64,000 nucleotides of DNA from Candidatus Poribacteria bacterium (GTDB lineage: Bacteria > Poribacteria > WGA-4E > WGA-3G), in the NCBI GenBank assembly GCA_965214095.1, contig OZ243938.1:2048001-2112000 (forward strand). Direction: 5' to 3'. Shown here piece by piece: positions 16,335 through 23,879 of the stretch. Made by a program: the position numbers and the translations under genes. Below the pieces are notes generated by a model. That model was not told the DNA's origin. It did not search any database and saw only the letters and a list, made by a program, of their open reading frames with translations. Position 1 is the first letter of the stretch; each line of letters starts with the position of its first letter.

Positions 16335-17402
16335 TCATGGATAATTGTATAGGTTCTCTGGTGTTCCATCCTCTATCTCTACATCTAATTGCTGAACTAA
16401 TGTGTCCTCTGTTGGTTCATCCTGACTTGCATTGAATTCACGAAGGATACAGTTGACGATCTCTTCGCTATATGCCTCAGCAGAAACTTGCCGTTGATTT
16501 GCTTCCCAAGCCATTCGTGCTACTGCTTCAAAATACTCAGCGTGTTTATATGCATCTAAAAGGTCTTTTCCGCGTGAGAACGTGCCATGGCCTATCCAGT
16601 AGAGGATGTGGCGCATCGGATCCGCGCCATTTTCAAAAAGTCGTAGACTTTCATAAGACAATTCTGGTATGCCAGGAACCCGTTCTTGAACGAAACCAAT
16701 TCCACCTGATGCGTCATAAATAATCGGTGTTTCAGGTTCATATCCTTTCAAGAAACTATAAAAGCGATCCGGGTGTCCGTATTCTGTACGAGAAATCAAA
16801 TTCAAAAATTTCGGCTGCAAATGAACTAATGCGTGAAATCCCTGTTTTTCTAACTGCTCAAAAATGAGTAGATAATGGAACATCTCACTGGTAGGTACAC
16901 ATCGGTTTTCCGATTTCTCTACTTCTGTTGCGTTATCTATTTCTGTTTGTGTTTGTGTGCCGTAACGCATCCGATAATGTGTTCCATCCGATTCCACTTC
17001 AATGACGGTGGCATTCAGTGCAGGATGCTCTATACCTACCATATCTAAACGAGAACCCGATTTTGTCAATAACACATGTCTACCTGCCAACCCTTTAACG
17101 ACAATGGCTGCAGGTAAGGCATATCGTGGTGAATCATCGTAGTCAATTAGGCATTTCGCATCTACTGATTCTGCCAATAACACCCCCATATTGCCTGCTG
17201 AAGCCCATAGATAATCGTGTGCGTGTGCATGTGCACCCACCCAACCCATTTGACCGATACATGTGCCTACTTCACTGTCCGGAGAAATAGGATGTAGACC
17301 TTGCTGATACCCTCTGGCACACCACTGTTGGTGTCGGTAACTATGTGCGGGTGGTGGTGTTTGCTGTCGCGTTAGGTAAGGATTGACTAATGAAAATTCC
17401 AC
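16335..17402 (-). CDS. Class II aldolase-family protein, RhaD-like
   Basis: PTSE, VH.QP, VPG..EL, W.GHG motifs. Confidence 0.7.
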   Translation of the reverse strand: MEFSLVNPYLTRQQTPPPAHSYRHQQWCARGYQQGLHPISPDSEVGTCIGQMGWVGAHAHAHDYLWASAGNMGVLLAESVDAKCLIDYDDSPRYALPAAIVVKGLAGRHVLLTKSGSRLDMVGIEHPALNATVIEVESDGTHYRMRYGTQTQTEIDNATEVEKSENRCVPTSEMFHYLLIFEQLEKQGFHALVHLQPKFLNLISRTEYGHPDRFYSFLKGYEPETPIIYDASGGIGFVQERVPGIPELSYESLRLFENGADPMRHILYWIGHGTFSRGKDLLDAYKHAEYFEAVARMAWEANQRQVSAEAYSEEIVNCILREFNASQDEPTEDTLVQQLDVEIEDGTPENLYNYP

Positions 17403-17531
17403 GTTTGCCTTTTATTTTATATTATTTCAAAATCTATGTTGTTTTAATATAACATGTTTTAAAGGCATTAGCAAGTAAAAACGTAGGAGTAGTTAGGAGA
17501 ATTGTAACCCCGATTGTCTGAATCAGGATTC

Positions 17532-17702
17532 TTGTTTCAGAATCGCGTATTTTCATGAATTTCTCGGATTGCACGGATAAGACTCCCATCCAGCATAGCA
17601 TATCAAAGACAGATGGTCATTGTGCAAAGCCTTCTTCTCCGCATCATCTGGACCATCCGCGCAAATCCGAGATTCAGCACACATGCCGCGATTCAGAAAC
17701 AA
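17532..17702. repeat. Long imperfect inverted repeat element
   Basis: TTGTTTCAGAATCGCG..CTCGGATTGCACGGAT / ATCCGCGCAAATCCGAG..CGCGATTCAGAAACAA; related to 43310-43472. Confidence 0.7.
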
Positions 17703-18012
17703 AAACCCACACCTATAGAATCCCAATGGGTGTGTAAAGTTCTTGGCAAAACAGCAATTATTCAACGATTGAATACCTCTACGTATGTCATGAATGTTTG
17801 CATTAATTGCATTAATTTCTATTATAATTTGGATTTATTTATGAAAAAACCTTCGCGAAAAAATAGAGTTAGATTCAGTCATAATAAGAGATTATCAATG
17901 AGCTGGGTGTATTTCTGAGACTGAAAGAATGTGGGGCACGGAGACTCCGCAAGACAATGGTTGGTGAGAACTTAGTGCCAAAAACTTTACACACCCATCC
18001 CAATAGATTTGC

Positions 18013-18041
18013 TTGACTTTTCTACATAGAATTTGTATAAT
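18013..18041 (+). promoter_or_regulatory. sigma70-like promoter of the AAA-like gene
   Basis: TTGACT-17-TATAAT. Confidence 0.65.
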
Positions 18042-18676
18042 GACACAGCATTTACATAATAACTTTGGAGCAAAACATGAGATGTTTTGGCACATTCGGT
18101 GATGCCATTCGTGGATTTCTACATACACTACGACAAATATATCTTTCAAATGCAAGCCTTAAGTGTCCATATAGTATCGGTATTGTTGGTGTAAAAAACA
18201 TCTCTCAACTTAACTATGATCGTTCCATTTCACCCTTTAACATTCAAGATGAGTTTCGGTTATCTAACTTTACACCCGCTCAAGTAGAAGAACTCTATTC
18301 ACAATACACAGAAGAAACTGGACAATCTTTGATCCCTGAGGTTATTGAAGCAGTCCACACTCAGACTGCAGGACAGCCGTTTCTTGTCAACAGATTCGGA
18401 CAAATTCTCACAGAAGAACTAAAAATACCGACATCTGAGACGATTCAGATGCATCACTTCAATAAGGCATACAAGAAAATTCTCAAAGAACGGAACACGA
18501 ATATCTCACACCTCATAACCAGCATACGCAGAGACCCACGTTTTGAGAAACTACTCATGCGTATCACATTCTATAAAAAACATATCAAGCAGTTAAACAG
18601 CAACTCGCTGCCTATTTAACACTCTTCCCGTCAAATCCCCATGCTTTAGCTTGCGGGATGTAGACGGGCAAAAAGG

Positions 18677-18705
18677 TTGACTTTGAGAAAGGAACACACT
18701 AGAAT
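18677..18705 (+). promoter_or_regulatory. sigma70-like tnpB promoter
   Basis: TTGACT-17-TAGAAT. Confidence 0.6.
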
Positions 18706-18791
18706 ACGAATACCTTTTGAGTGGTGGATGTTGTTAGCATCTGCCACATTACTAACGATGGGTAAAGGGTTCTTTACCGAGAAGGCATACC

Positions 18792-19904
18792 ATGAGAAAA
18801 ACCTATAAATACAAGGGACAAAATCAAAAGAACACAATCAAGTTAGGCAATATGCTTGACGATATGCACCAGATTCATGTGCATATTATGCGATTGCAGT
18901 GCAGATATTACCGTATGTATGGCAAAAACATATCCGCCTATAGAATGAATGCACATGTTGCCAAACTAAAAAAGCGGACAAAGTCTCATTGGACAGACTT
19001 GCCGAGTCAAGTTGTGCAAGATGTTGTGCTGCGTATGGGCAAAGCTTATGATGCATTTTTCAGAAATATGAAAGATCGCAAGGCTGGCAAAACAACGTGC
19101 AAAGTCGGTAGACCGCACATCAAACCGCAACACAAATACAACTCTATGACATTTACACAGGCAGGCTATAAACTTGAAGGGAACCGTATCAAGATCAACT
19201 GTATAGATACGTGGTTCTCCTTTCACAAACATCGTGAAATAACAGGTGACATCAAAACAATAACCCTCAAGCGTGACAGGTGTGGCGATTATTGGATATG
19301 CTTTTCTTGTGATAACGTTGACGCACCGAAATCTTTTGCCAAGACAGGTGAAAGTGCTGGCTTTGATTTCGGATTGACAACCTTTCTCACAACTTCTAAT
19401 GGTAATAAGATTGTGTCTCCGCAGTTTTTGAAAAAGTCCTTGAACAAGTTGAGAACACTGAATAAAAGCGTGAGTCGTAAAGTCGAGGGATCAGGCAATT
19501 GGTATCGTGCTATCCGTGCGTTGTTGCGGCAGTATAGGAAGATAGCACGACAACGTCTTGACTGGCAGTGGAAACTTGCTACAGACCTTTGCCGGCATTT
19601 TGATACCTTGTGCTTTGAAACACTAAATATAGACGGCATGAAACGCCTCTGGGGACGCAAAATCAGTGATCTCGCTTGCTACCAGTTCATTCAAGTGTTG
19701 GCATTCAAGTGTGCTAAACACGATAAAACTTTCCTCAAAATCGGACAATGGACAGCTACAACAAAACCTTGTAGCAACTGCGGACACACAAACGATAAAC
19801 TAACACTTTCAGATAGACACTGGATATGTCCTTCGTGCAATACTGAACACGATAGAGACATCAATGCAGCTATCAATATCAAACAGGCAGGCTTAGCTGC
19901 CTAA
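18792..19904 (+). CDS. tnpB: RNA-guided endonuclease TnpB
   Basis: RuvC GFDFG / FETL / DRDINAA, zinc finger CSNC..CPSC. Confidence 0.95.
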   Translation: MRKTYKYKGQNQKNTIKLGNMLDDMHQIHVHIMRLQCRYYRMYGKNISAYRMNAHVAKLKKRTKSHWTDLPSQVVQDVVLRMGKAYDAFFRNMKDRKAGKTTCKVGRPHIKPQHKYNSMTFTQAGYKLEGNRIKINCIDTWFSFHKHREITGDIKTITLKRDRCGDYWICFSCDNVDAPKSFAKTGESAGFDFGLTTFLTTSNGNKIVSPQFLKKSLNKLRTLNKSVSRKVEGSGNWYRAIRALLRQYRKIARQRLDWQWKLATDLCRHFDTLCFETLNIDGMKRLWGRKISDLACYQFIQVLAFKCAKHDKTFLKIGQWTATTKPCSNCGHTNDKLTLSDRHWICPSCNTEHDRDINAAINIKQAGLAA

Positions 19905-20017
19905 AGTGGAGATGACGTGAGATGGGTGATCCTTTTGGAGAAACGCTGTTGTCAAGGAAGCACAAGCCCCAACCTTTAGGTTGTGGGTCACTATGACAAC
20001 TGGAAAATGCAAGAGAG
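19800..20017 (+). ncRNA. Predicted TnpB omegaRNA/reRNA (5' end approximate) with guide from 19998
   Basis: Established TnpB architecture: scaffold spans the tnpB 3' end to the right end, guide is the flank. Confidence 0.55.
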
Positions 20018-20042
20018 GGATTTTACGTCGTGTTTGATTATC

Positions 20043-20276
20043 TTCAGGTACCCAAGCCTAAAAGCATGGGATTGTGTTAATCTTCTGCCAGGCTTGATGT
20101 TCTTCGGTCTTGGCTCGTAACTTTACCTGTATGCCACCGAGGGGTCCCAGCGACCCACGATACAGAACCTCAGACACTTCCGACTTCGGAAGTTGTTCGA
20201 GCGAACTATCGTCTTCGAGTTACTTGGACACGGATATAATCAACGTGCCCGATGCAAGACACTTCCGACTTGCTTG
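20043..20276 (-). ncRNA. Putative ~230-nt structured RNA
   Basis: Downstream of an internal promoter; consecutive hairpins; a G-U pair possible only on the minus strand; duplicated 15-mer. Confidence 0.55.
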
Positions 20277-20281
20277 GACAT

Positions 20282-20310
20282 ATAATAACAGACTTGACGT
20301 TTTCTGTCAA
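20282..20310 (-). promoter_or_regulatory. sigma70-like promoter inside the 332-bp element
   Basis: TTGACA-17-TATTAT on minus strand. Confidence 0.7.
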
Positions 20311-20508
20311 GCAAAATATAGGAACGGGCATTCCTCCCACACCTAAAGAAGTGGGCTTCCTGTCTAAAACGTTGGTGAGAATGCTATTTCAAAGGTTGAA
20401 ACAGATACGTATGATGGGTGTACCATACAGAGCTATGTTATTCCTGTCCTGCAACAACGACCATCCCAGGTGGTCTAATAATTTTCAAAGCAATATGCTG
20501 AGACAACT

Positions 20509-22551
20509 ATGAAACGAGAAAATATGCAAAAACAGATAATACAAGATAAGACTTTCACGAACTCAATCGGAATGCGGTTCGTAAGAATAGAATCCGGAAC
20601 CTATATGATGGGTTCTGCGGATGCGAACCTTTCAGATGAACTAACCTCAGGTAAAGAATACTTGAAAGATGGAGATTGGGATGAACAACCTGTACATCAG
20701 GTGACGCTCAGCACTCCCTTTCACATTGGAATCCATCAGGTAACGAATGCTCAGTATGAGGAATTCGATCCTTCACATAGCGAACAACGTGGAAAAATCG
20801 GCTTCTCAAAAGACGATGATGAGGCAGTTGTTTTTGTGGATTGGCACGAAGCGACACGTTTTTGCGAATGGCTCTCCGAAAAGGAGGGGCTCCCGTACCG
20901 TTTGCCAACAGAAGCGGAATGGGAATATGCATGCCGTGCAGGAACCATAACCCATTACCATATAGGTGATACTTTACCTGATGAATTTCATAAAAATGTT
21001 TGTGAGAGTTGGTATCCGGATGAGGGACGGAGTCGTGGTGCTGAGGAAATTGTGCCATTACACGTCGGCAAAACAACACCGAATGCATGGGGTATCTACG
21101 ACATGCACGGGAACGTTGAAGAGTGGTGTCGAGACTGGTATGGTCCCTATGAAGCACATCCACAGACCGATCCGAGTGGACGAGAATCAGGTTTATATCG
21201 TGTTACTCGGGGTGGTAGTCACTCAACTTTACTATGTTATCTGCGTTCTGCAAACCGTATGGGTGCTGTGCCTGAAGATAAACATTGGTATATTGGGTTT
21301 CGAGTTGTTTGTGGGGAGATGCCAGAAAAACCCAACCTATTGCCATCACCAAAGGTAGCGTTATGGGGACGTGATGTCAAGCAGGAGAAGACAGATGTTC
21401 CTGCCCCAGAAAAACCGCATTTTGCAGAACCGATTCCGTTTGTCCGTATTCCTGATGGTTCGAACGGTCCGCTATTTACAAATCATAACCATGTTCCTGC
21501 GATAGTAGAATGTCCGAATGGAGATATGTTTGCTGCGTGGTATTCGTGTGTAACTGAACGAGGAAGGGAATTGACAGTCGCTGCAAGTCGTTTGCGTTTG
21601 GGAGAATCGGAATGGGAGATAGCTGAACCGTTTTGGGGACCACCTGATAGAAACAACCATGCAACCTCGCTTTGGTGCAATGAAGATGGGAGGATTTACC
21701 ATTTCAACGGACTATCAGCAGCTGCGACGTGGGGTCCTTTAGCATTAGTGTTACGACATTCCGATGATAATGGGACAACATGGTCAAAACCACGTTTGAT
21801 CTCGCCTGAGCATAGACTGCGTCACATGCCTATCGCATCTGTTTTCCGAAGACAGGATGGTTCAATTCTCTTTGCTTGTGATGCTGTGAGTGGTGGAAAC
21901 GGCGGCACGGTCGTTTGGATAAGTGATGATGACGGAGAGACGTGGTATGAACCTGGTGCTGGTCAACCAATACCAGATTTTGCTGCGGGTAATAGTGGTG
22001 GATGGATTGCTGGTATTCACGGAGCTGTCGTGGAATTGTCTGATGGTCGATTGATGGGGTTTGGACGTGGTGATACGATTGATGGTCGCATGCCGAAAAG
22101 CATCTCTGAAGATGGTGGAAAAACATGGCAATATAGTGCAAGTTCGTTTCCACCTGTTTCTGGTGGACAACGGTGTGTATTCTTTCGACTTCAGGAAGGA
22201 CCGATTTTTCTTGCATCCTTCACAGGAAGCCGTAAAACACCCGAAACAATGCCTATCGTGGACGAATCGGGTAATGAACGCCATGTAACTGGACTATTTG
22301 GTGCACTCTCTTATGATGATGGAGAAACTTGGACAAATATTAGACTGATTTCAGACGACGGTGCTGACAGAGAAATTGAAACAATGGATGGTCGACCTTT
22401 TGTTATGGGATTGAATAGTGCAGAACCGGGTGGGTATCTTGGTGTTACCCAAGGAAGAAACGGTATCATTCATCTCATTAGCAGTAAACAGCACTATCGG
22501 TTTAACTATGCTTGGTTGAAGGAATCGCCACCCTCTCAACAGCAATCATAG
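20509..22551 (+). CDS. FGE-sulfatase (SUMF1-like) domain fused to a BNR/sialidase-like propeller
   Basis: RLPTEAEWEYACR, PNAWGIYDMHGNVEEW, RGGS, IGFRVV; four Asp-boxes SxDxGxTW. Confidence 0.88.
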   Translation: MKRENMQKQIIQDKTFTNSIGMRFVRIESGTYMMGSADANLSDELTSGKEYLKDGDWDEQPVHQVTLSTPFHIGIHQVTNAQYEEFDPSHSEQRGKIGFSKDDDEAVVFVDWHEATRFCEWLSEKEGLPYRLPTEAEWEYACRAGTITHYHIGDTLPDEFHKNVCESWYPDEGRSRGAEEIVPLHVGKTTPNAWGIYDMHGNVEEWCRDWYGPYEAHPQTDPSGRESGLYRVTRGGSHSTLLCYLRSANRMGAVPEDKHWYIGFRVVCGEMPEKPNLLPSPKVALWGRDVKQEKTDVPAPEKPHFAEPIPFVRIPDGSNGPLFTNHNHVPAIVECPNGDMFAAWYSCVTERGRELTVAASRLRLGESEWEIAEPFWGPPDRNNHATSLWCNEDGRIYHFNGLSAAATWGPLALVLRHSDDNGTTWSKPRLISPEHRLRHMPIASVFRRQDGSILFACDAVSGGNGGTVVWISDDDGETWYEPGAGQPIPDFAAGNSGGWIAGIHGAVVELSDGRLMGFGRGDTIDGRMPKSISEDGGKTWQYSASSFPPVSGGQRCVFFRLQEGPIFLASFTGSRKTPETMPIVDESGNERHVTGLFGALSYDDGETWTNIRLISDDGADREIETMDGRPFVMGLNSAEPGGYLGVTQGRNGIIHLISSKQHYRFNYAWLKESPPSQQQS

Positions 22552-22613
22552 TTGCTATAAACCAATATTTGATGTCATAAGGCAATCTGTGGAGATCTTC
22601 AAATCACATGAAA

Positions 22614-23879
22614 TCACTCAATGTAGCCTAAGTTCCGCAACCTGTCCTCCAATATCTTCTTCTCCTCAGGTGTAGAAACTTGTGCCTGCAGGTGTTGGTA
22701 GTTGGAATTCATCAAGATCGCATCATAGGTATCGCGGAACTTATCTGAATTATCACAAGTAAGTTCTTCCCCGCTCATAACATGTCGATAAACATTATCT
22801 CCCGTTTGTTCATCTTCACGATACATATACTCACCGTCAGTTAGTGACCAAAGTCGCACACCTTCAGTATATCTGCTAATCTCCTCGTTATCAACCGTCG
22901 TGCGTGAAGTCACTCGATGGTGTGGCATCTCCAAGTTTTTCTGACTAAGAAAACCGATTCCATACAGACTATCCAATTCCGACAAAACCAAGCGGTTATC
23001 ATCAAATTCCGAGAGTGATAATAAATTTTGTCCATAACCATTATAGTCAGTATCAATACCCGCAAGGTTTGTTATAGTTGGAAACAGATCAATGGCAGAA
23101 ATCGGAACTTGTGGAAATTCTAATTTTTCTACACCGGGAATATGTGCTAACAACGGCACGTGCAGAACATTCTGATTTAGCGTGCTGCCGTGATCAATAA
23201 GTTCCTCACATATCCCTTCTCCGTGGTCTCCGAAGATAAAAACTGCCCATTCTGGCAAGTCAAGCTGCTTCAAGATTTCAACGAGTTTGAACTCAAGTAT
23301 ATGTGTTGCAGCGGCGTAGTAAAATCGCAGTGCTTCATCTGTTTTTCCACGTTTTACAAGTGATCCGAGACTTGGTGCCCCCGGTATGCCGCTCATCCCA
23401 TATCCACCGTGTGTATACCAAAAGTGCAGAAAACAGAACTGCGGTGTCTCTGAAGGTTGCTTCAAATGATGTATCATATCTTCCATAGAACCGAGTTGCT
23501 GTGCTTTCGCTTTCGGGTCAACAGGTGTGATGAAAGACTCATAATCAAGGAAACGAAATACTTCAGCACGTTCAGACCGTCCAGTGATATGATAACCTTC
23601 ATCCGCAAATATTTGGAATAAGTTCGGGATACCATCAAACATCTTCAGGTAGGTCTGTCCATAGACACCATGTTCAAACGGATAAAGTCCGGTAAAGTAT
23701 GAAGTATGGGAGGGACGTGTTGCAGGCGCAGCCACAAAGAACTTTTCTGCAAGTGAGAAATCTTTGGTCAGCAGATCGAACTTCGGTGTATTGAAGAGAG
23801 AATTAGTTCGACTTAGCGCATCATAACGCCAAGCATCTATTGAGATGAGAAGAAACTTATTGATAGACTTTGTTGCCAT
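22614..23879 (-). CDS. Sulfatase-like hydrolase (alkaline phosphatase superfamily, Thr-type motif)
   Basis: ISIDAWR.D, TRPSH...FTG..P..HG, GDHGE, HVPL, RLRNLGYI. Confidence 0.85.
   Translation of the reverse strand: MATKSINKFLLISIDAWRYDALSRTNSLFNTPKFDLLTKDFSLAEKFFVAAPATRPSHTSYFTGLYPFEHGVYGQTYLKMFDGIPNLFQIFADEGYHITGRSERAEVFRFLDYESFITPVDPKAKAQQLGSMEDMIHHLKQPSETPQFCFLHFWYTHGGYGMSGIPGAPSLGSLVKRGKTDEALRFYYAAATHILEFKLVEILKQLDLPEWAVFIFGDHGEGICEELIDHGSTLNQNVLHVPLLAHIPGVEKLEFPQVPISAIDLFPTITNLAGIDTDYNGYGQNLLSLSEFDDNRLVLSELDSLYGIGFLSQKNLEMPHHRVTSRTTVDNEEISRYTEGVRLWSLTDGEYMYREDEQTGDNVYRHVMSGEELTCDNSDKFRDTYDAILMNSNYQHLQAQVSTPEEKKILEDRLRNLGYIE

Follow-up and report, generated by a model that had tools for sequence, protein, structure and literature searches.

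A gene-less IS200/IS605-type mini-element of Candidatus Poribacteria with a predicted structured RNA and a look-alike of a core strand in its optional leader

The locus and its mini-element

The stretch of DNA analysed here in full (64,000 nt, referred to as the window) comes from Candidatus Poribacteria, which are sponge symbionts. Within it, an AAA_35-like gene (18065–18619 and 20379–20478, plus strand) is seemingly split by two insertions; in relatives, its frame is unbroken through both empty sites to a TAA. The first insertion is a TnpB-only IS (about 18621–19997, plus strand) whose tnpB (18792–19904) carries the Pfam domains OrfB_IS605 and Cas12f1-like TNB. It has a promoter-like TTGACT-17-TAGAAT near 18677–18705, is inserted after ...TTTAAC, is absent from the relatives G064, G014, and G040, and is present in three copies in the genome with 94–100% protein identity. 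Its right end (19997) lies tail to tail with the second insertion, a mini-element, at a distance of 45 bp. On the other side, an FGE-sulfatase domain fused to BNR/sialidase-like repeats (20509–22551, plus strand) is adjoined by a sulfatase gene (22614–23879, minus strand). Poribacteria genomes have been described as sulfatase-rich, and the genes at 20509–23879 would fit this description.

The 15-mer AGACACTTCCGACTT occurs exactly twice on the plus strand, at 20172–20186 and 20257–20271, and the duplication that the original prediction had reported is exact at both positions. Allowing up to two mismatches, three matches were found in the window against 0.10 expected, and none of 100 shuffles reached three. 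In the whole genome there are 10 exact occurrences, namely two in each of five copies of the mini-element, and no match with one mismatch or fewer was found outside these five copies; at two mismatches, 15 further matches were found, compared with about 10 expected by chance according to our own calculation. The repeat lies outside the tnpB element of the window and belongs to a separate repeat on the minus strand.

This separate repeat is a mini-element of 332 nt (20043–20374, minus strand). Three relatives of the same genus (G064, G014, and G040) carry the empty site ...GATTATC|GTGAGAATG..., and comparison of the empty ...ATC|GTGA... with the filled ...ATC[332 nt]GTGA... revealed no target-site duplication. 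From this comparison, the insert is exactly 20043–20374, without target duplication and directly 3′ of TCAC on the element strand. The TCAC motif (20375–20378, minus strand) is host DNA outside the element and flanks its left end, as the target or transposon-adjacent motif (TAM); (T/C)TCAC precedes the left end in all five copies. Insertion 3′ of a short motif without duplication, the signature of IS200/IS605 elements, is thus what is seen here. The mini-element is mobile, with five dispersed copies of 96–98% identity and unrelated flanks in the window's genome.

Both ends carry subterminal imperfect hairpins on the same strand, with CUUUAGG-type loops. The left-end hairpin, read from the sequence, is CCCAC-UUCUUUAGGU-GUGGG (20336–20355, minus strand), and its arm sequences vary among aligned homologs yet remain complementary. 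The right end (20043–20070, minus strand), delimited by copy comparison and by the empty site, consists of an imperfect hairpin (20070→20051) and the terminus ...CCCAUGCUUUUAGGCUUGGGUACCUGAA|; here too the arms change in sequence among homologs while complementarity is kept. The only ORFs overlapping the mini-element are short (44–86 aa), none of them conserved, and any reading frame would be broken by inserts, about 19 and 23 nt long, in which homologs differ. The mini-element is a non-autonomous element of the PATE type, without a protein gene.

The genome also contains four copies of an autonomous IS605, each with a Y1 transposase (Y1_Tnp, TnpA) of 138 aa and a TnpB of 420 aa. TTCAC stands before the left end in three of these four copies, the fourth differing upstream of the hairpin, and a hairpin similar to that of the mini-element is present at the left end. 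At the right ends, 30 of the 34 terminal bases (88%) are identical between the mini-element and the autonomous IS605 (pairwise E = 3e-7). By sequence, then, the ends of the mini-element match those of an autonomous element that bears TnpA and would be able to mobilise it.

Predicted transcript, fold, and distribution of the scaffold

A sigma-70-type promoter, TTGACA-17-TATTAT with TG before the −10 box, matches the consensus at 11 of 12 positions (20282–20310, minus strand). It lies just inside the left end and is aimed at the right end, and TTGACA-N17-TAnAAT is kept in most homologs. Transcription would start near 20275. The minus-strand RNA, which the original prediction called putative, very probably exists, because an 11/12 promoter points into the region and because the helices described below covary. 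According to a TnpB guide-RNA model, read-through would append flanking sequence to this RNA as a predicted guide (20027–20042, minus strand); in the empty site, the predicted-guide sequence directly follows TCAC. In RNA data, only two of 41 sampled words were present, and these data comprise only assembled contigs of relatives with less than 90% likeness, which are unable to show expression or transcript ends. An inverted repeat that most homologs retain (TTGACAnnnnnnGTCAA), TTGAC-N7-GTCAA (20292–20312, minus strand), overlaps the −35 box and might act as an operator or fold as a hairpin in single-stranded DNA.

Homologs were gathered by a family-wide DNA search, two pattern scans, and the covariance model R1. 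Of 151 Poribacteria genomes sampled, 45 contain the scaffold according to the covariance model, comprising 32 of 99 in family f1, 12 of 26 in family f3, none of 25 in other families, and the window's own genome. Genomes of family f3 have up to 20 copies or more. An 18-mer scan of genome contigs returned 41 stretches against about 17 expected by chance (our own calculation); the six of them from outside Poribacteria had no element-length match to the model, two showing a match of only 24–31 positions around the seed. The 18-mer returned 16 stretches from metagenomes, including one true element (L122), and a gapped anchor pattern found none in the metagenome scan.

The proposed fold was examined in 35 aligned homologs, in which 94% of cells are paired, compared with 29–44% when partners are slid. 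Thirteen pairs show compensatory, two-sided change, and the covariation score was reached by none of 500 shuffles. From its 5′ end, the predicted RNA begins with two optional leader hairpins: P1 (20254–20273), whose loop is the 5′ copy of the 15-mer (20257–20271), and P2, GGGCACG-UUGAUUAUAUC-CGUGUCC (20226–20250; 98.6% of cells paired, two-sided changes in two of seven pairs). A three-way junction domain (20169–20223) follows. It contains the K 5′ strand GUAAC (20219–20223); the J helix, formed by CUC/AGAC (20211–20219) with GUCU-GAG (20169–20175) (99.6% paired, one-sided changes only); P3 (20195–20206; 100% paired, two compensatory pairs); and P4, ACUUCCG-AAGU-CGGAAGU (20176–20193; 95.9% paired, one-sided changes only). 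Next comes a pseudoknot domain (20104–20165), made up of PKa, CUGUAU (20160–20165) with AUACAG (20127–20132), in which 99% of cells are paired and five of six pairs are compensatory; an insert hairpin (20142–20156) that covaries; PKb, UCGGU (20136–20140) with ACCGA (20104–20108), 85% paired with two of five pairs compensatory; and the K 3′ strand GUUAC (20117–20121). All of these features are on the minus strand.

The comparison of homologs thus gives good support to P3, the long-range PKa, the insert hairpin, and P2 as predicted helices, and moderate support to PKb, which would form a pseudoknot with PKa. As P4 and J hardly vary in sequence within family f1, all changes in them are one-sided and of the wobble type. 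Family f3 carries a different, longer hairpin at the position of P4, and for this reason P4 is best regarded as a hairpin whose sequence is lineage-specific. The pseudoknot with covariation support lies downstream of the 15-mers and is not built from them. One further helix, CUCG with CGAG (AACUCG with GUUACGAG), was dropped, as its 3′ strand reads CGAA or CAAA without compensation in 11 of 35 rows and J fits better. Within 17000–23000, no match to Rfam families was found at E up to 1. A group I intron (IStron-like) was rejected in view of the lack of an Rfam match and the presence of an internal promoter.

The two copies of the 15-mer

On the minus strand, the 5′ copy (20271→20257) lies inside GCAAG-UCGGAAGUGU-CUUGC (20273→20254), and the 3′ copy (20186→20172) is directly preceded by ACUUCCGA (20193→20186), which pairs with its UCGGAAGU. 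Both hairpins had been drawn in the original prediction, and both are real. Comparison of homologs assigns different places to the two copies in the predicted RNA: the 3′ copy belongs to the core scaffold, of which it forms the P4 loop end, the whole P4 3′ arm, and the J 3′ strand, and the 5′ copy is a look-alike of this core strand in the loop of the optional P1 leader hairpin.

A set of 39 distinct f1 variants was extracted by a regular expression that failed to capture at least four divergent homologs already known (L029, L042, L043, and L045). The 9-mer core of the 3′ copy is exact in 33 of the 39. The 5′ copy is present in 24 (with an exact 9-mer in 21 and an exact 15-mer in 15) and absent from 15, in which the P1 loop is another one, a single hairpin of a different kind is present, or the leader is missing altogether; its distance from the 3′ copy varies between 84 and 90 nt. 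All 21 f3 copies examined start at GUAAC, having neither the leader nor the 9-mer. The leader is modular, with four classes, one of which is no leader at all. P1 stems vary among homologs (GCAAG/CUUGC, GGCA/UGCC, GGUA/UACC, and GGAAACC/GGUUUCC), and 18 of 20 homologs have an unaltered loop core (UCGGAAGUG), compared with 17 of 20 for the structural 3′ copy. Among the 20 aligned homologs with both copies, 11 have two identical 15-mers and nine differ in one or both copies; none of these nine has matching changes in the two copies. Variation within the 5′ copy is concentrated near its ends (positions 0, 2, and 12–14). A two-site operator at the DNA level was rejected, the spacing not being fixed.

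The 5′ copy is able to pair with the same partners as the 3′ copy, ACUUCCGA and AGAC. Its substitution in both helices gives a nested alternative of 12 bp with P3 as a branch. That the first loop could pair with the same ACUUCCGA had been foreseen in the original prediction and is borne out by 20 homologs, in which 98.1% of the cells of the alternative helix are paired; the figure for native P4 is 97.9%, and compensatory changes occur in neither. When transcripts are truncated immediately upstream of the 3′ copy, the minimum-energy fold includes the alternative in 15 of 20. At full length, it is 1.6–7.7 kcal/mol worse than the native fold in all 14 sequences tested, and for 11 of these sequences the native fold has the lowest energy of all, whereas for the remaining three it lies no more than 0.8 kcal/mol above the minimum.

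As a working mechanism, we propose that the 5′ copy transiently occupies ACUUCCGA and AGAC during synthesis of the RNA and later gives way to the 3′ copy; it would then serve to aid or gate folding rather than as a recognition segment. We give such a transient folding or gating role roughly one chance in three. The role is uncertain because no compensatory change supports it, because each of the two informative variants (L069 and L030) breaks one pair of the alternative, because the leader is dispensable, and because the homologs are all kin. Covariation support for the 5′ copy was not found. A pseudoknot or a conformational switch formed through the 15-mers, two of the options in the original prediction, is likewise possible, no informative compensatory change having been found.

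Nearly as likely is a functionless duplication. According to this explanation, which is possible but keeps a clear minority of our confidence, the 5′ copy would be a relic: part of P4 was duplicated internally into the leader and has yet to decay, the element and its RNA otherwise being as we propose below. Three variants of the same genus (L022, L080, and L087) carry both arms in the leader, ACUUCCG(A/C)AACAAGUCGGAAGUGUCU, like a duplicated P4. An optional, modular leader and a native fold at or close to the energy minimum also agree with a relic, and the conservation of the loop may simply be inherited among related homologs. However, the P1 stems have turned over several times while the loop core was kept about as often as the structural 3′ copy, and the clustering of changes at the ends of the 5′ copy likewise argues against decay without function.

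A candidate guide RNA, possibly used in trans

We propose that the strong promoter inside the left end transcribes a structured RNA comprising the three-way junction, the pseudoknot, and the right-end hairpin, and that this RNA runs out of the right end into flanking DNA, which is the layout of a TnpB guide (omega RNA or reRNA). A TnpB encoded elsewhere would use the RNA in trans, and the RNA would direct cleavage of empty sites consisting of TCAC and the flank, thereby keeping the mini-element in place. The guide-RNA reading is suggested by the internal promoter, by the scaffold abutting the right end, and by the position of the TAM on the other side of the target. It is weakened because the scaffold is not linked to tnpB, because only 34 nt are alike, because there is no Rfam match, and because co-occurrence with TnpB is weak. 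On balance, we regard a trans-acting guide-RNA function as somewhat more likely than not. The combination of a PATE-like element, a guide RNA used in trans, a 3′ copy in the core, and a 5′ copy that is a transient look-alike is the best explanation of the data as a whole, and we hold it with somewhat better than even confidence.

The likeliest TnpB partner in the window's genome would be that of the autonomous IS605, judging from the common TCAC motif and the common right-end terminus. The likeness of the mini-element to the RNA region of this resident IS605 is confined to the last 34 nt. No parent tnpB element carrying the scaffold was found by nhmmer and the covariance model in the window's genome, by the right-end pattern in five genomes of genus g5, or by tblastn in 50 element loci. 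In the window's genome, the scaffold is confined to the five mini-elements. Among the 50 element loci with 1.5-kb flanks (some places having been fetched twice), a TnpB was found only near the window's own copy, where it is convergent. Within the genus, co-occurrence with the F-type TnpB is weak: six genomes have the scaffold and six of 40 have the TnpB, with three shared, and the three scaffold-only genomes are fragmented assemblies. In the five g5 genomes, the exact right end of the mini-element occurs in mini-elements only; the autonomous IS605 of one g5 genome has other ends, with TTAAC or TTAT-type motifs and ...GAGTATGTCAA. The TnpB load is very high in the four Poribacteria genomes checked (G090, G093, G122, and G130), with 50 to 101 TNB-domain family hits per genome.

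A second family of gene-less mini-elements, about 410 nt long, is present in the window's genome in four copies, one at G000:C1:781025–781434 (positions 1180–1589 of L011) and the others near 959.2–959.6 kb, 3279.1–3279.5 kb, and 5082.2–5082.6 kb. It shares its left end and promoter with the 332-nt mini-element (nhmmer model positions 1–105) and lacks the 15-mer and the P3/P4 domain. About 90 nt at the end of its RNA have 82% identity with the RNA region that follows the window's tnpB, and by this resemblance the second family is a conventional omega-RNA PATE.

These comparisons also bear on whether the RNA is a TnpB guide at all. It might instead be a cargo RNA of another kind (a ribozyme, an outward-reading transcript, or a regulatory sRNA, for example) that hitch-hikes on IS605 ends. 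The failure to find a tnpB-linked scaffold in the window's genome or in the 50 element loci (where the only TnpB is convergent), the lack of an Rfam match, and the restriction of the resemblance to 34 nt of a TnpB-linked right end would all agree with a cargo RNA. Nevertheless, the orientation, the left-end promoter, the scaffold abutting the right end, and the read-out into the flank match the omega-RNA layout, and the second mini-element family couples the same left end and promoter to an RNA whose end resembles that of a tnpB-linked RNA. Moreover, a selected structure on a selfish element needs to benefit that element, and homing is the known benefit. We therefore consider a cargo RNA unlikely.

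It is still less probable that both copies of the 15-mer are binding sites of one trans factor (two TnpB protomers, a host RNA-binding protein, or a nucleic acid) in a two-site recognition. The same 9–15 nt are kept in two structural contexts, and the 5′ copy is displayed single-stranded in a loop, as such a factor might require; however, most bases of the 3′ copy are paired in the supported fold, the genome contains neither a further copy nor a complement with one mismatch or fewer, the spacing of the copies varies, and f3 scaffolds lack the motif entirely.

The IS110 bridge RNA is a structured transposon RNA with programmable internal loops that vary with target and donor. The RNA described here is likewise a structured transposon RNA with internal loops, and the third option of the original prediction, in which a fixed scaffold has a variable recognition segment repeated at three positions in coordination, resembles a bridge RNA; unlike in the bridge RNA, the segments are invariant, and the ends, the TAM, and the resident enzymes are of the IS200/IS605 type. 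The look of a single sequence, with a repeat and its complement in a structured RNA, is all that speaks for a programmable segment, which we reject as barely credible, since the segments are near-invariant across two genera even though the elements sit at unrelated sites, no mirrored change was found in the nine variant rows, 15 of 39 f1 variants and all 21 f3 copies lack the 5′ copy, and 52 exact hits in viral contigs, all single and without element context, are about what chance would give by a rough estimate of the collection size. Nor did the segment reveal a target: there was no match in the genome at one mismatch or fewer outside the element and no blastn match in a phage collection. The coordinated variation for which the original prediction had proposed to test homologs was not seen. 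Homologs without the duplication, or copies diverging independently, were named there as grounds for refutation, and this is what the homologs show; the repeat is a fixed structural feature rather than a programmable address.

Returning to the guide-RNA reading, the canonical TnpB omega RNA has a pseudoknot architecture. This RNA, or reRNA, of the ISDra2 type is reportedly that of Karvelis et al. in 2021. The mini-element resembles it in that the scaffold ends at the right end, the flank would be the guide, a pseudoknot is predicted, and the TAM is on the left-end side, but differs in that its scaffold does not overlap tnpB and is like a TnpB-linked RNA only in the terminal 34 nt.

A closer counterpart is provided by the PATEs of Geobacillus stearothermophilus. 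Passages of the paper on these elements state that PATEs often encode omega RNAs and that TnpB must act on them in trans (Meers et al., 2023; PMC10055086). As portrayed there, PATEs share with the mini-element the lack of a protein gene, IS605-type ends with imperfect hairpins, insertion at a short motif without duplication, ends in common with an autonomous element in the same genome, and an RNA oriented to the right end that would need TnpB in trans. Compared with the PATEs of those passages, the mini-element has a covarying scaffold of about 230 nt that is found in gene-less elements only and not at a tnpB 3′ end, a near-consensus promoter of its own, and an optional leader of modular make-up that in one form repeats a core strand, although some of these traits may be common to both.

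Published descriptions of gene-less IS605 derivatives with guide RNAs go little beyond brief mention, and none of the papers searched names both Poribacteria and TnpB. Although the principle of omega-RNA PATEs is established, this family adds a covarying scaffold present only in gene-less elements, in two families of the phylum, together with its own near-consensus promoter and a modular leader of which one form copies a core strand. If the guide-RNA reading is true, the family would be a case of guide RNAs evolving and spreading independently, as parasites of TnpB that have a promoter of their own and a scaffold untied from the nuclease gene. A more far-reaching version, unlikely in our judgement, is a selfish lineage made of guide RNA only, whose scaffold stands beside no nuclease gene and whose leader decoy is a co-transcriptional gate. 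The decoy would then occupy the partners of P4 and of the junction until the real strand is made or until TnpB or processing removes the leader, and would time or limit the assembly of the active ribonucleoprotein, amounting to an RNA switch on a guide that parasitises the TnpB of other elements. Should the leader gate folding, it would be a natural case of regulated guide-RNA maturation and offer a design idea for switchable TnpB guides.

In some f3 copies (L180, L181, L184, L186, and L190), the hairpin equivalent to P4 contains a nested palindromic insert (...UGAGGUUCACUAGUGAACCGCG...). The same motif as in this insert, GTTCACTAGTGAAC, is also present near the right end of L172, and it may be a still smaller inserted repeat.
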